From NCBI GenBank assembly GCA_963726255.1, contig CAVSBL010000002.1, forward strand, positions 1,408,001 to 1,472,000: 64,000 bases of DNA, written 5' to 3'. The position numbers were made by a program, and so were the translations under genes. Below are positions 32,515 to 51,546 of this stretch, in pieces. Positions within the stretch are counted from its first letter, which is position 1; each line of letters begins with the position of its first letter. The notes beneath the pieces were generated by a model that was not told the DNA's origin, searched no databases, and saw only the letters and a program-made list of their open reading frames with translations. This stretch comes from Candidatus Bathyarchaeota archaeon (GTDB lineage Archaea > Thermoproteota > Bathyarchaeia > 40CM-2-53-6).

Positions 32515-32704
32515 TGGCGGGCCCGCCGGGATTTGAACCCGGGACCCTTCCCCAAGAAGGCTTCTCAGCCGGTTTCTTTTCGGGTGGCTTCCCATGGGTT
32601 CGAAAAGCCCAGAGGTAAAAGCGTCATCGACACCAGTCTGGCGTCTCCGATGCTCTACCTTTTCAGGATCCAGACTTGAAAGGATCTGACTGAGCTACGG
32701 GCCC
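32515..32704 (-). tRNA. tRNA-Lys(UUU) with four introns (17/17a, 30/31, 37/38, 43/44)
   Basis: Removing 32661-32687, 32623-32646, 32586-32615 and 32548-32579 gives a 77-nt cloverleaf GGGCCCG TA GCTC AGTCAGGTA GAGC A TCGGG CTTTTAA CCCGA GGGTC CCGGG TTCAAAT CCCGG CGGGCCC G CCA; each intron has BHB-type pairing. Confidence 0.9.
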
Positions 32705-32756
32705 CGGACGCTCACAGCACGGTCCACTATCAAAAGCGTTTCGCAGGGACGAAGAT

Positions 32757-33698
32757 CTACGACGGTGCTTCCGCGAGAATCACGTTTACTTTGCCTCGGT
32801 CGGCTCCGCGTCCAAGCGAGAGTTCAAGGCTTTCCCCGACCTTTCTGTGCTGAATCGTATGCTGCAGGTCGTCCCAACTCTTCAGCAGCTTCTTATCAGC
32901 TTCCAGAATCACGTCGCCGGCCGACACACCGCTCTTGTTGGCAGGGCTTCCTCTACCGACTTTGACGATCAGCACTCCGTTCTCATGTGGGATATCATAC
33001 GATTCCGCGATATCCCTGTTCAGAGTTACCCCTGAGATTCCTAGGTACGGTCTGACAACTCGCCCGTTTTGTATAATCTCCTTCGCAATCATCCTAGCTG
33101 TATTGATTGGGATGGCGAAACCGATGCCCTGCGCAAAGGGTATGTTCGCAGTGTTAACGCCGATTACGGAACCCGCACTGTCAACCAAGGGGCCGCCGCT
33201 GTTCCCTGGGTTAATGGCTGTGTCGGTCTGAATCAAATCCTCATACATGTGATCTTCGATGTGTATGTGCCGTCTCAGAGCACTGACTACGCCAACGGTT
33301 GCCGTGGGGCCTGGAAGTAAGAAGCCGTACGGGTTTCCGATGGCGATGGCAATTTGCCCAACGACTAGGCTGTCCGAATCCCCCAACTTGACTTTAGGCA
33401 GGTCCTCGCCGTCAACGCGTACCACGGCGACGTCGGACGTGGCGTCCGAGCCTAGAACCTCTCCTTTGAATTTCTTGCCATCGGTTGTTACGACTTCAAC
33501 GCGGGATGCGTCTTCGACTATGTGGTGGTTGGTCAAGATTCCGCCGTTGGAATCGAATATTATTCCTGACCCTAGGCCACGGAGGGGTATGGTGTCGAAG
33601 AAATTCTCGCGAATCACCCGTAAAGTCGCCACAGACACTACGGCGGGGCTGACTCTCTCGATGGCAGCAATCACATCTTTCTCGGTACCTGGCAACAT
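32757..33698 (-). CDS. HtrA/DegP-type serine protease with PDZ domain
   Basis: LTNHHIV, SDVAVV, INPGNSGGPL, PDZ. Confidence 0.92.
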   Translation of the reverse strand: MLPGTEKDVIAAIERVSPAVVSVATLRVIRENFFDTIPLRGLGSGIIFDSNGGILTNHHIVEDASRVEVVTTDGKKFKGEVLGSDATSDVAVVRVDGEDLPKVKLGDSDSLVVGQIAIAIGNPYGFLLPGPTATVGVVSALRRHIHIEDHMYEDLIQTDTAINPGNSGGPLVDSAGSVIGVNTANIPFAQGIGFAIPINTARMIAKEIIQNGRVVRPYLGISGVTLNRDIAESYDIPHENGVLIVKVGRGSPANKSGVSAGDVILEADKKLLKSWDDLQHTIQHRKVGESLELSLGRGADRGKVNVILAEAPS

Positions 33699-33782
33699 TT
33701 TCTAGACCTCGAAGAAAATTGAAAGCGACAGCGGTCTATTTAATGACTAACCACAGAGACAATTAGACAAGAGGCGAACGAG

Positions 33783-33923
33783 ATGGATGATGCTAAGTAT
33801 TTCAAATGCGGAAAATGCGGTTACGAATTCCTATCCAAAACAGGCAACTCAACCTGTCCCAAGTGCAAGAGCCAAACGCTTGAGGAGAAAGACCTCAAGA
33901 GCTTGTTGGGGTTGGACGAATAG
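33783..33923 (+). CDS. Small zinc-ribbon protein (46 aa)
   Basis: Manual translation MDDAKYFKCGKCGYEFLSKTGNSTCPKCKSQTLEEKDLKSLLGLDE; below ORF-track cutoff. Confidence 0.7.
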   Translation: MDDAKYFKCGKCGYEFLSKTGNSTCPKCKSQTLEEKDLKSLLGLDE

Positions 33924-33995
33924 ACTCGGGACCATCCTCTCGAAACACACAAGCATTTGGTTAGCCTTTCTTGTAGAGGAGTGACGACCGCGGGT

Positions 33996-34099
33996 TGGCG
34001 CCCTTCGCCAGGAGAAGGCTAGCTGCTCCTTTGGGCGGGATTCGAACCCGCGTCGACGACGTGACAGGCCGTCATCCTAGACCACTGAACGACCAGGGC
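33996..34099 (-). tRNA. tRNA-Asp(GUC) with intron at 68/69 in the acceptor stem
   Basis: Removing 34004-34031 restores acceptor pairing GCCCTGG/CCAGGGC plus G73 and CCA (76 nt); anticodon loop CTGTCAC. Confidence 0.9.
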
Positions 34100-34312
34100 A
34101 TCGGCAACTCAGAAATCCCTGAGCCAGCTTAAAGCATTGCTACAGCATAGGCACTAGGCGCATCTTACTTGTGTAAGGATGGAATAAGATACGGACTCAT
34201 TGTCGACTATTCTCTTAACCATCGTCGCGCTGCTGATCCTCGTCCCAGTGATACTAGTCTACTTTCGTTTTCGTCAACGCCTACTGCAACGAATTCTCAA
34301 AAACTCCTGATC

Positions 34313-48983: not shown

Positions 48984-49757
48984 ATGTCCCACGCTTCCAG
49001 AACACCACCCTGTAACTCCGACACGGAAACGAGGTCGGCGACGTTCCCAGCCCTATACGAGCTCTCTCGGCCACTACTGGACTACAATATCGTCATCGCC
49101 ATCGTCAAGGGGGATGTCGGGGCAGTCAACATACTCAAAGACGCGATGAGCATTTCAAAGGACCTTCGCATCGACAACCTAATTCTGGCGCTAGGACCTA
49201 CTACGCCGCTGTCGCTCCGACCACCTTCAGGATCGAGAATATTGTGGGCAACATTCACTGACGGCCAAAACCTCCTAAACGGCCCCCGATTAACCATAGT
49301 GCCACCAAACCAGCTCACAGACCTAAGCTTGAGCCTGGAAAAACTCTCCAAAACAAGAACCGGCCGCATTCCACTAATCATGGGAGACTTTCTTGACAAC
49401 GTGCTCTCCGTCTCCTCAGCCCCAGCAGAACTCTATTCATTCTTATGCAAACTCTTCACCAGAATTCGGACAAACGGGCAGACGGCGTTCTTCGTAGCGA
49501 CAGAGGATTTGCACGACTCAAAGAAAACTGCAATACTCAAGAGGTTCGCCGACGTTGTCATCGAATACCGAGCAGTACAGGAACTAACCGAGAGCAGGCT
49601 GGAAGCTCGTATCTTCGACCACGCAGAGAACCACTACACTATATGGGACGAGAAAAGCACGTACTCGAAATATGAAAATCGACCATTCCTAAGCCACGAG
49701 CTTCCAAAGATCGGGCGCCAGCCCAACCTCATCACCGAAGCCCAAGGATATTTCTAG
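48984..49757 (+). CDS. Degenerate RecA/KaiC(RAD55)-like domain protein
   Basis: LTDLSLSL...IMGDFLDN...LKRFADVVIE pattern with no Walker A; start uncertain. Confidence 0.55.
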   Translation: MSHASRTPPCNSDTETRSATFPALYELSRPLLDYNIVIAIVKGDVGAVNILKDAMSISKDLRIDNLILALGPTTPLSLRPPSGSRILWATFTDGQNLLNGPRLTIVPPNQLTDLSLSLEKLSKTRTGRIPLIMGDFLDNVLSVSSAPAELYSFLCKLFTRIRTNGQTAFFVATEDLHDSKKTAILKRFADVVIEYRAVQELTESRLEARIFDHAENHYTIWDEKSTYSKYENRPFLSHELPKIGRQPNLITEAQGYF

Positions 49758-49781
49758 CAAGTCGGACTGAACAACGAGAAG

Positions 49782-51080
49782 TTACGCGGTTCTTATCGTT
49801 GCTGCCCCTTGCAGGCCAAGCTCCTTAATTGAAATCTCCCGCATCTTGAACTTCTGGATTTTCCCCGTAACCGTCATAGGAAACGAGTCTGTGAACTTGA
49901 AGTAGGCTGGAACCTTGAAGTACGCTATTCTCGCTTTGCAGTATTCCTGAAGTTCCAGGGCTGTTGCAGTCTGCCCAGGTTTCAGTTTGACCCACGCCAT
50001 GACTTCTTCTCCGTACTTTCGGCTTGGAACTCCGATTACTTGAACATCCGAAACCTTGGGATGCGTGTAGAGGAAATCTTCCACTTCTCTCGGGAAAATC
50101 TTCTCGCCGCCACGGCTAATCATATCCTTAGTTCGCCCGACGATGTTCACGTAGCCATTCTGTTGCATAACTGCAAGGTCTCCAGTGTGCATCCAACCCT
50201 CGGAGTCAATGGCTTCCCGAGTGGCTTCTGGATTGTTCCAATACTTCAGCATCACGAGGTAACCGCGAACGCACAACTCTCCCGCAGATCCGCATGGTAG
50301 AGTTCGGCGATGAACATTGTTGGTACGCCGTGAAGCGCTGTGCACTTTTCCTCCTCCACAGTCCTGAGGACGGTTTCCGCGCTGAAAGCATCCGAGGGAA
50401 GAACCATGGTTGCACCATGGGTAACGCACGCAAGGTTCCCTAGCACCATTCCGAAACAATGGTAGAAGGGTACTGGGATGCACAATCTGTCGTGGTGAGT
50501 GAAATTCATTCCCTCGCCAACGAAGAAACCATTATTCAAGATGCCATAATGGGTTAGGGTGGCGCCTTTCGGAAAACCAGTGGTTCCCGACGTATATTGA
50601 ATGTTGATGGCGTCATAACATTCGAGCGCCCTTTCTCTTTCTCTAAGCTCGGCTGGGGAGGAGTTCATTGTTCCGATGTCTATGAAACGTTCCCAGGGAA
50701 GCATTGAGGATGGGGAGGGCTCACCGCAATTGCTGAGTGTTATGACTCGTCGTAGGGCGGGGACACGGGTTGCTTTGATTTCCTGGTCAGGCGAATTGAG
50801 TCATGACCCATTCCGCGTTGTTCGGGGACCATATGCCGACGCAATCTCCCTTCTGCACGCCGAACCCGAGAAGCGCTGCGGCAAATTCATCCACCCGTTC
50901 CTTGAGCTGTGCGTAAGTGAACCTGAGGCCCTGATGCCTTGAAACGAGCGCCTCTCCATCCTCATACCTAGAGACTACCTCGTCGAAGAAACTCCCAACC
51001 GTCTTTTCGATGAGAAGCCTATCTGCCGGGCCTTGTTGGTAGCTTGGGCCCGGCCTGTTTTCCTTCATTTGCGCTCGCAC
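49782..51080 (-). pseudogene. AMP-binding acyl-CoA synthetase with two internal deletions and frame changes
   Basis: Three fragments: N-terminus to [23 protein letters not shown]...[18 protein letters not shown]...HTGDL...FPMTVTGKIQKF. The TAK..NINP segment and the GSPCP/YGxTE segment are missing. Confidence 0.8.
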
Positions 51081-51144
51081 GCCGTTTGGGGTTTGGGGGT
51101 GGAAGAATAGTTCTTGGTACCTTTACTAAATACGGTAAAATGCT

Positions 51145-51292
51145 TGGCGGGCCCGCGGGGATTTGAACCCCGGACTTCTGCACTGGCCTTCCAGTTCTAC
51201 AGCTTTTTCCGGGTGTTCCTTAGGGGGTTCGGCAACAATCTCCGCCTCTTTAAGCGGAGCCTGCCGCTCTATCCAACCTGAGCTACGGGCCC
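51145..51292 (-). tRNA. tRNA-Arg(CCU) with three introns (30/31, 37/38, 45/46); C at position 33
   Basis: Removing 51228-51260, 51205-51220 and 51176-51196 gives a 78-nt cloverleaf with GCAGC CCCCTAA GCTGT AGGTC; A20 present. Confidence 0.8.
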
Positions 51293-51382
51293 AGAGCTGG
51301 AACGGGGCGGCTAAAGTAAAAGGATTAAGGCGGGATGATTCGAAGAAGCTTAAAGAATCAACGGGTTTTCCTTTGGGGTTGA

Positions 51383-51546
51383 GCGGGGATACCCGAGCCA
51401 GGTCAAAGGGGCAGGACCACCAGCCCGCTGGTGGGGCCATACTTAAGATCAGAACTTGCCTTGGGCAAAGAGAAGGCATCCTGTGGCGTAGAGCCCACGT
51501 ATGGACGCGAAAGCCTTCAGGGGTTCGAATCCCCTTCCCCGCACCA
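51383..51546 (+). tRNA. tRNA-Leu(UAA) with introns at 30/31 and 37/38 and a probable third in the variable arm
   Basis: Removing 51416-51440, 51448-51477 and ~51492-51510/12 gives CAGGA CTTAAGA TCCTG, variable arm GGC-GTAG-GCC, A73 and CCA. Confidence 0.85.

Follow-up and report, generated by a model that had tools for sequence, protein, structure and literature searches.

Does a stretch of archaeal DNA in which a standard finder recognises a single tRNA hold only that one tRNA gene, or does it hold a group of genes that interruptions conceal? We asked this of a 64,000-nucleotide (64-kb) segment of a Bathyarchaeia genome (GCA_963726255.1, contig CAVSBL010000002.1, positions 1,408,001 to 1,472,000), hereafter the window, with positions counted from its first letter. 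An initial annotation, made from the letters alone, had placed six tRNA genes with 17 introns between positions 32515 and 51546, and our analysis matched it position by position. The six genes (Lys-UUU, Asp-GUC, Tyr-GUA, Arg-UCG, Arg-CCU and Leu-UAA) are all interrupted. It is almost certain, in our assessment, that the 17 segments genuinely interrupt functional genes, and very probable that they are introns spliced by the endonuclease EndA and the ligase RtcB. That the genes are functional and single-copy, with long precursors carrying one to four short bulge–helix–bulge (BHB) introns each, is likewise highly likely.

Anatomy of the six genes

The six loci were parsed by cloverleaf rules, the BHB rule and comparison with congeners. 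Under the BHB rule used here, the 5′ exon ends in a 4-nt helix strand plus two bulge nucleotides and the intron ends in the complementary 4 nt plus two nucleotides; the central 4-bp helix is denoted H, and the source genome G000. The introns are 15–49 nt long (mean 26.2 nt, 445 nt in total) and their density is 2.83 per gene, with a maximum of four. Excision of all 17 by coordinate produced the six cloverleaves claimed from the letters, each called by default ARAGORN with the expected anticodon. The spliced products have uninterrupted 7-bp acceptor stems and an encoded CCA, and measure 76–79 nt (Leu 88 nt). The shortest exons between neighbouring introns are 6 nt (Lys 38–43; Tyr T-loop 54–59), others being 7–8 nt. 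In every gene the exons are collinear within 104–199 nt, and none qualifies as a split or permuted tRNA gene. The genes and introns are as follows (MFE, minimum free energy).

32515–32704, minus strand: tRNA-Lys(UUU) gene, 190 nt primary and 77 nt spliced, CCA encoded, four introns; the product is called Lys(ttt) by ARAGORN.
32661–32687, minus strand: Lys intron 1, D-loop 17/17a, 27 nt; H 4/4, intron helix 5 bp; BHB is the MFE fold.
32623–32646, minus strand: Lys intron 2, 30/31, 24 nt; H 4/4, intron helix 7 bp; BHB is the MFE fold.
32586–32615, minus strand: Lys intron 3, canonical 37/38, 30 nt; H 4/4; the outer helix is the 5-bp anticodon stem after removal of intron 2; BHB does not appear in the MFE fold of the minimal segment.
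32548–32579, minus strand: Lys intron 4, 43/44, 32 nt; H 3/4 in G000, perfect in G001 (alignment, by eye).
33996–34099, minus strand: tRNA-Asp(GUC) gene, 104 nt primary and 76 nt spliced, one intron; splicing restores seven Watson–Crick acceptor pairs, G73 and CCA.
34004–34031, minus strand: Asp intron, acceptor stem 68/69, 28 nt; H 4/4 (CGCC/GGCG); BHB is the MFE fold.
37282–37480, minus strand: tRNA-Tyr(GUA) gene, 199 nt primary and 77 nt spliced, four introns; exon lengths 31/7/16/6/17 nt.
37422–37449, minus strand: Tyr intron 1, 30/31, 28 nt; H 4/4.
37366–37414, minus strand: Tyr intron 2, 37/38, 49 nt; H 4/4; two internal hairpins; outer helix 6 bp after removal of intron 1.
37327–37349, minus strand: Tyr intron 3, T-arm 53/54, 23 nt; H 4/4, intron helix 5 bp.
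37299–37320, minus strand: Tyr intron 4, T-loop 59/60, 22 nt; H 4/4, intron helix 5 bp; the outer helix is the T-stem, only after removal of intron 3.
38795–38909, minus strand: tRNA-Arg(UCG) gene, 115 nt primary and 79 nt spliced, two introns.
38857–38877, minus strand: Arg(UCG) intron 1, 29/30, 21 nt; H 4/4 (ACAC/GTGT).
38834–38848, minus strand: Arg(UCG) intron 2, 37/38, 15 nt; H 3/4, 2-bp mini-hairpin, outer helix is the 5-bp anticodon stem; a relaxed motif, not the MFE fold.
51145–51292, minus strand: tRNA-Arg(CCU) gene, 148 nt primary and 78 nt spliced, three introns; C at position 33.
51228–51260, minus strand: Arg(CCU) intron 1, 30/31, 33 nt; H 4/4 (CGGC/GCCG); 6-bp hairpin offset from H, giving a strictly adjacent helix of 0 bp.
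51205–51220, minus strand: Arg(CCU) intron 2, 37/38, 16 nt; H 2/4, 2-bp hairpin; the weakest motif of the 17, its removal being required for the cloverleaf.
51176–51196, minus strand: Arg(CCU) intron 3, 45/46, 21 nt; H 4/4, intron helix 5 bp; BHB is the MFE fold.
51383–51546, plus strand: tRNA-Leu(UAA) gene, class II, 164 nt primary and 88 nt spliced, three introns.
51416–51440, plus strand: Leu intron 1, 30/31, 25 nt; H 3/4, intron helix 7 bp; BHB is the MFE fold.
51448–51477, plus strand: Leu intron 2, 37/38, 30 nt; H 3/4 (4/4 in three congeners, by eye); four equivalent placements yield the same product.
51492–51512, plus strand: Leu intron 3, variable-arm loop, 21 nt; H 3/4 in G000, perfect in most congeners at the same register (by eye).

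BHB motifs at the exon–intron junctions

The description of the introns as BHB-type held up statistically. H was complete (4/4) in 11/17 introns, 3/4 in 5/17 and 2/4 in 1/17. By chance, a complete H occurred in 9/492 decoys with boundaries shifted by up to 15 nt (1.8%) and in 2.1% of 20,000 random window placements. At least three of the four pairs were present in 16/17 introns, compared to 80/492 decoys (16%) and 15% of random placements; when an intron helix of 2 bp or more next to H was demanded as well, 14/17 introns qualified versus 2.4% of decoys and 2.1% of random placements. The corresponding binomial tails, allowing up to four equivalent placements per intron, were ~1e−8 and 6e−13. 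Pairwise identity among the window introns, the only ones compared, reached at most 69%, and therefore they form no transposing families.

Several observations weigh against this interpretation. Folding of each junction, proposed earlier as a check, succeeded in part: MFE prediction on minimal exon–intron segments gave a strict BHB (at least three H pairs and both bulges open) in 5/17 introns only, with the full H helix in 9/17. Three motifs are weak: that of Arg-CCU 37/38, with H 2/4; that of Arg-CCU 30/31, where the hairpin is set off from H; and that of the Leu variable-arm intron, which has an adjacent helix of 1 bp. Boundaries are ambiguous by 1–3 nt in 8/17 introns, the equivalent placements yielding an identical product. 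For Lys 43/44 and the Leu variable-arm intron another register gives a better helix in G000, and the register was chosen via congeners; at Lys, 43/44 was preferred because a position variable in G016 then falls in a bulge and the variable loop has 5 nt, whereas 44/45 gives a 7-nt variable loop and puts the variable position inside an exon. Moreover, BHB and ARAGORN together are very permissive, with 13,078 of 199,376 candidate splice combinations accepted at the Lys locus. The choice of boundaries is partly motif-guided and hence circular, save for three naturally absent introns. No RNA run was among the listed public runs that match the stretch, and splicing, its order and the cut sites are all predicted from DNA.

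A brute-force search for BHB-like deletions parsed by ARAGORN was dropped as too permissive, since thousands of wrong parses were accepted. Given this permissiveness and the strict motif in 5/17 MFE folds only, the motif statistics cannot stand alone, and the parse rests on strict cloverleaf rules and comparative data.

Conservation and turnover of introns across the genus

The genus comprises at least 23 species-level genomes. Across 7–20 aligned congeners the exons were invariant or nearly so, and the introns differed in sequence and length. Ten congeners aligned with Lys over the full 189 nt, and the hairpin of its intron 2 varied with compensatory changes. Exactly the 27 nt of the Lys D-loop intron were missing from G017, and five further genomes matched the Lys query only from position 45 onward. 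The alignments of Arg(CCU), Leu, Asp and Arg(UCG) (20, 16, 7 and 12 sequences, respectively) showed the same pattern of invariant exon blocks and variable introns, with the intron strand that pairs with the exon staying conserved. In Arg(CCU), intron 1 ranged from ~12 to 33 nt across the genus (alignment, by eye), the middle of intron 2 varied and the hairpin of intron 3 was highly variable in length. The Asp intron helix showed a compensatory change in one congener (L056), and in intron 1 of Arg(UCG) the bulge letters varied and the short intron helix co-varied (12 loci, by eye). A G-C to A-T change in three loci (L042, L044, L045) supports the Leu variable-arm stem restored by splicing.

The Tyr gene was aligned in 17 genomes, leaving out G033, which is identical to G000 there. 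Nine pairs in the intron helices changed on both sides, compared to 2.7 in shuffles, and 0/500 shuffles reached nine; four of these two-sided changes fell in the helix of intron 1 and three in that of intron 3. Overall, 98.2% of cells in the intron helices were paired, versus 35–42% with the partner slid. The two T-arm introns also differed in occurrence. Both were present in ten genomes, only 59/60 in four (G004, G011, G006, G010) and neither in three (G015, G032, G013), such that 53/54 was missing from 7/17 and 59/60 from 3/17, with gaps exactly at the predicted nucleotides.

To place these differences we used a tree of the two 1.4-kb Tyr flanks; its alignment was poor (2,997/5,602 columns kept) and only well-supported sister pairs were considered. 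G014 (both T-arm introns) and G015 (none) were sisters (100/99) whose first Tyr introns are identical. A second sister pair was G017 (both) with G032 (none), and G013 (none) stood next to it (100/100). The same tree separated G004 from G011 despite their identical first Tyr intron. Both T-arm introns thus come or go together between close relatives at least twice, and the 6-nt exon that they set apart comes or goes with them; because deeper parts of the flank tree were unreliable, events were not counted.

Variation of the same kind was seen in public runs. Contigs at least 90% alike occurred in four runs, labelled freshwater sediment, sediment, peat and wetland, and all listed differences within the six genes were intronic, with at least 14 substitutions and at least five indel places. 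Among the matches listed, one run contained a contig form without both Tyr T-arm introns.

The Tyr 37/38 intron (37366–37414) was far more conserved than the other introns, with most columns invariant in the 17 genomes, which hints at a function beyond being spliced out; inspection by eye for a C/D-box motif in this intron found none. Two matches 1.1 kb apart had suggested that Tyr is split in G004 and G011; this was rejected, the gene being complete at the first place and the second match another locus. That second locus lies ~1.1 kb downstream of Tyr (L061/L068 in G004, L063/L067 in G011), matches positions 91–205 of the Tyr query at 80–83% identity and is probably another tRNA gene sharing intron-like or T-arm sequence.

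Visibility to standard finders and genome-wide intron load

How much of this do standard finders see? Default ARAGORN reported one tRNA in the window, Asp at 34025–34100, whose 3′ end it misplaced. At the curated threshold Rfam matched 2/6 genes (Asp and 51148–51292), and permissive filters added a third (38798–38909). Lys, Tyr and Leu were seen by neither, and the earlier suspicion that such tools miss these genes was thereby borne out. Five exact T-loop motifs occur in 32515–51546, and the one at 32529 belongs to no called gene. No other tRNA-like match was found anywhere in the 64 kb. A Lys-CTT call at 20296–20445 by ARAGORN with ‘-i’ was treated as a false positive, because cloverleaf elements were not discernible by eye and Rfam gave no match there. 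The Asp gene (33996–34100) is an annotation trap of its own: both tools call an ‘intact’ gene of 73–76 nt with three non-canonical acceptor pairs, the last acceptor nucleotides of which are intron, the real 3′ end with CCA lying 29 nt further on.

Across the whole 2.42-Mb genome, default ARAGORN reported seven genes, five of them of 93–98 nt and without assignment, and only Arg-CCG was truly compact. Rfam returned 17 matches over its cut-off and, except for Arg-CCG and the truncated Asp call, all were at least 82 nt long or partial. Almost the whole tRNA set of the organism is hidden from standard tools.

A census that required an uninterrupted T-arm, an acceptor stem paired 7/7, U8 and a CCA in the gene itself recovered 28 tRNA genes genome-wide, of which 27 were interrupted (93–190 nt) and one was compact (Arg-CCG, 78 nt). 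An automated parse of 24/28 genes yielded 50 introns, with 1, 5, 11, 5 and 2 genes carrying zero, one, two, three and four introns, respectively. As the four genes without a parse are 107–119 nt long, the floor is 54 introns in 28 genes, or 1.93 per gene, and the true mean is probably higher because the anchored set leaves out genes with T-arm or acceptor introns. The parse tied variable-arm length to isotype, a fewest-introns rule having misparsed Lys and Leu; it was imperfect in that the Arg-CCU anticodon was read as CCA instead of CCT, the intron count of three being right. Relaxing the census to genes without an intact T-arm gave 43 extra candidates, dropped as mostly implausible (up to 337 nt, inside coding regions). 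Four-intron genes numbered two of the six in the window (Lys, Tyr) and one elsewhere, a 181-nt Pro(GGG) gene (G000:C2:979121–979301) whose four introns all have H 4/4 in the automated parse.

The only paralogue found is a truncated Lys(UUU) copy at G000:C2:471313–471446 (L074), 87% identical, which spans introns 2–4, from the 3′ D-stem strand through the T-loop, lacks the 5′ acceptor and D-arm, and has a diverged 3′ end. It may be the remnant of a duplication or of integration at a tRNA gene.

Splicing enzymes and a proposed pathway

The genome encodes two distinct EndA paralogues and an RtcB-type ligase (571 bits).

43462–44025, plus strand: EndA-family ORF, 187 aa, with Pfam PF01974 and PF02778 (C and N domains of tRNA_int_endo).
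G000:C2:748279–748791: second EndA paralogue, 188 aa, matching EndA catalytic chains from A. pernix, S. tokodaii and P. aerophilum (E 8e−41 to 4e−28).

The first of these is the EndA subunit already noticed among the tRNA genes, and both of its domains were found; it is His-less. Its best solved-structure match was the EndA of M. jannaschii (1A79, E 7e−15), to which it aligns with a gap over what we take to be the catalytic-His stretch, the presumed catalytic Tyr and Lys being aligned. No crenarchaeal β chain was among the 11 listed structure matches. The ORF (42229–46000 region) lies between an IF-2B-family gene and that of histidyl-tRNA synthetase, in the same 19-kb stretch as the six tRNA genes, and nothing points beyond coincidence for this clustering. 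Loci encoding close relatives of the ORF occur mostly in metagenome-assembled genome (MAG) records named Candidatus Bathyarchaeia or Bathyarchaeota archaeon, in keeping with the assignment of the organism to Bathyarchaeia.

The second paralogue resembles the catalytic chain of the (αβ)2 EndA of A. pernix and S. tokodaii (3P1Z, 3AJV, 2CV8), including the loop and motif stretches. Against chains of these two species E ranged from 8e−41 to 5e−37, the best being A. pernix 3P1Z_B (8e−41, 179/188 residues aligned). Across the stretch that we take to be the crenarchaeal specificity loop, the alignment to 2CV8 (S. tokodaii) is gapless and that to 3P1Z_B has one single-residue gap. The paralogue also has letters matching the stretches of the Tyr/His/Lys motif, presumably catalytic. 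The window ORF probably represents the structural (β) subunit, and the C2:748 kb paralogue the catalytic α. Among solved structures the window ORF is closest to the subunit of a homotetramer, that of 1A79, and the heteromer is a prediction. Enzymes of (αβ)2 type are described mainly from TACK archaea and are reported to accept a broader range of BHB motifs (PMC7714728).

From directly observed features (gene anatomy, motifs, conservation and covariation, presence or absence between species, enzyme genes) we infer splicing itself, its order and the subunit roles. Each gene would be transcribed as a single long precursor. An (αβ)2 endonuclease, with α from the C2:748 kb gene (crenarchaeal-type specificity loop) and the His-less β-like subunit from the window, would cut in the two 3-nt bulges flanking the 4-bp exon:intron helix, and RtcB would ligate the exons. 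Two observations make it most likely that the introns leave stepwise, each in its own cycle of cutting and ligation. First, an outer helix of 5–6 bp is available at every 37/38 intron and at Tyr 59/60 once the others are removed, whereas before splicing the 30/31 or 53/54 intron breaks this helix up; hence 37/38 would follow 30/31, and Tyr 59/60 would follow 53/54. Second, simultaneous cutting of both neighbouring introns would release the exons of 6–8 nt between them.

Relation to Thermoproteales and Asgard archaea

Multi-intron tRNA genes are known from Thermoproteales (Sugahara et al. 2007/2008 and Fujishima et al. 2010, as cited in PMC4033280). According to two papers, three introns per gene is the archaeal maximum and P. 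calidifontis is richest, with 71 introns in 46 genes (PMC4033280, 2014; PMC8450103, 2021). The initial annotation had taken three as the reported maximum, which held to 2021 and no longer does, as up to five in one gene are described for Asgard archaea in an October 2026 preprint by Goswami et al. (10.64898/2026.10.13.758758). For three Asgard families that preprint gives 2.20 intervening sequences per gene, two EndA paralogues and an absence of intron families, with many introns overlooked by tRNAscan-SE. An earlier preprint (Valentin-Alvarado et al. 2023) places introns in 92–95% of tRNA genes of three wetland Asgard genomes.

The genes described here resemble those of Thermoproteales in carrying short introns of BHB or relaxed-BHB type, with several to a gene, both at the canonical position and at many others, and in having some motifs that form only after a neighbouring intron is removed (for Thermoproteales, PMC8450103). 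The (αβ)2 EndA with its specificity loop, predicted here from sequence, is a further likeness. In contrast to the Thermoproteales maximum of three per gene, there are three four-intron genes here and 27/28 anchored genes are interrupted; where Thermoproteales have intron sequence families across tRNA types, the window introns are at most 69% identical. The organism is of another class, and the four run labels place it in sediment, peat and wetland, whereas Thermoproteales are hyperthermophiles. The Asgard state is alike in several respects: nearly all tRNA genes interrupted, about two or more introns per gene and up to four or five, a median length near 22–23 nt, use of D-arm and T-arm positions, many introns missed by annotators, no families, two EndA paralogues and a wetland soil source. 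Unlike Asgard archaea, Bathyarchaeia belong to the TACK group, and the maximum here is four as against the five given for Asgard.

The load might have been inherited from an ancestor shared with Thermoproteales, with no independent proliferation. Positions such as 30/31, 37/38 and 59/60 are also used in Thermoproteales, and both groups appear to have an (αβ)2 enzyme with the same loop. We examined the distribution of the trait with a proxy, the number of Rfam tRNA matches per genome (E at most 1e−4, completeness at least 85, at most 37 candidates scored per genome). Genomes of the family (n = 12, with G000 among them) had a median of 12 matches, those elsewhere in the order (n = 20) 16.5 and those elsewhere in the class (n = 89) 32; because at most 37 candidates were scored per genome, the contrast between family and class is if anything understated. 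By this proxy tRNA detectability is near normal in other orders, and introns come and go between sister species, which makes shared inheritance unlikely, though of the alternatives weighed here it survives best. The trait sits inside one order of Bathyarchaeia by the proxy, which fits an origin separate from Thermoproteales. Of the earlier proposal of an independent and more extreme proliferation, the independence thus fits the data and the comparison with Thermoproteales stands; a record it is not, since Asgard archaea match it.

The system is therefore a new lineage of a known phenomenon and not a new extreme, with Thermoproteales and Asgard archaea already known. What it adds is intron presence and absence at species level, a T-loop cut twice and 6-nt exons. 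A literature search, with little coverage of subscription journals or supplements, found no report of this in Bathyarchaeia. On balance we lean towards a third independent archaeal lineage, one Bathyarchaeia order from peat, wetland and sediment, in which nearly all tRNA genes have several introns and turnover is ongoing.

Other explanations of the insertions

A few segments with weak motifs, namely Arg-CCU 37/38, Arg-UCG 37/38 and the Leu variable-arm insert, might be kept in the mature tRNA or removed in another way. These three have H 2/4 or 3/4, intron helices of 1–2 bp and no BHB in MFE folds, and the Asgard preprint leaves open that some intervening sequences are not introns. However, 15–16 nt kept in an anticodon loop would be incompatible with decoding, better helices occur at the same registers in congeners, and (αβ)2 enzymes are reported to accept relaxed motifs (PMC7714728). 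Retention is accordingly improbable, more so than shared inheritance.

Very improbable is that the six are decaying pseudogenes with random insertions, with functional compact copies elsewhere or unassembled. The assembly leaves some room for this (five contigs, 98.5% completeness, 9.3% contamination), and a truncated Lys-like fragment does exist at C2:471313–471446; this fragment, however, has the same introns and lacks the 5′ half. Intron-less copies of the same isoacceptors would have favoured decay, and ARAGORN and Rfam found no compact copy of the six anywhere in the five-contig assembly. Exons invariant in 7–20 congeners, insertions that drift with compensatory changes, and their location at BHB motifs far above chance all argue for functional genes instead.

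An assembly or binning error, for instance a chimeric join at a conserved tRNA word, is hardly credible as the source of the insertions. Contigs of public runs do tend to break off at the tRNA loci, and several odd joints between such loci occur in them. Even so, the same multi-intron architecture recurs with diverged sequence at syntenic loci of 17–20 further congeners and in MAG records that were deposited separately, with variation confined to introns.

Consequences for annotation and for intron evolution

Standard finders recognise one to three of the six tRNA genes in this genus, and because they miss the others, MAG quality rules that count tRNAs, and inferences on codon usage, are wrong for a widespread soil and peat group. 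If the reading as spliced introns of functional genes in an independent lineage is true, the genus would offer a natural series of near-identical genomes in which to test gain and loss of tRNA introns, a matter unresolved for Asgard archaea and Thermoproteales, with replacement by a copy of the spliced RNA as a candidate mechanism of turnover. Its species-level genomes, at least 23 in number and differing in intron presence, would be better material than any described for how introns enter and leave. Interruption of almost all tRNA genes is already described for three Asgard families and, in part, for Thermoproteales. A further lineage at about two to three introns per gene would suggest that this state is reached repeatedly wherever a permissive (αβ)2 endonuclease exists, and would raise the question of why wetland archaea of two phyla converged on it. 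The inter-intron exons of 6–8 nt make splicing order a testable biochemical question.

Two minor observations concern the exons. In the Arg-CCU anticodon loop (51214–51220), position 33 is C, not the near-universal U, in G000 and 17/19 congeners; it is T in the congeners L036 and L048, and the base there also pairs with the intron. Lys, both Arg and other unrelated tRNAs have the same acceptor stem and nearly the same T-arm.

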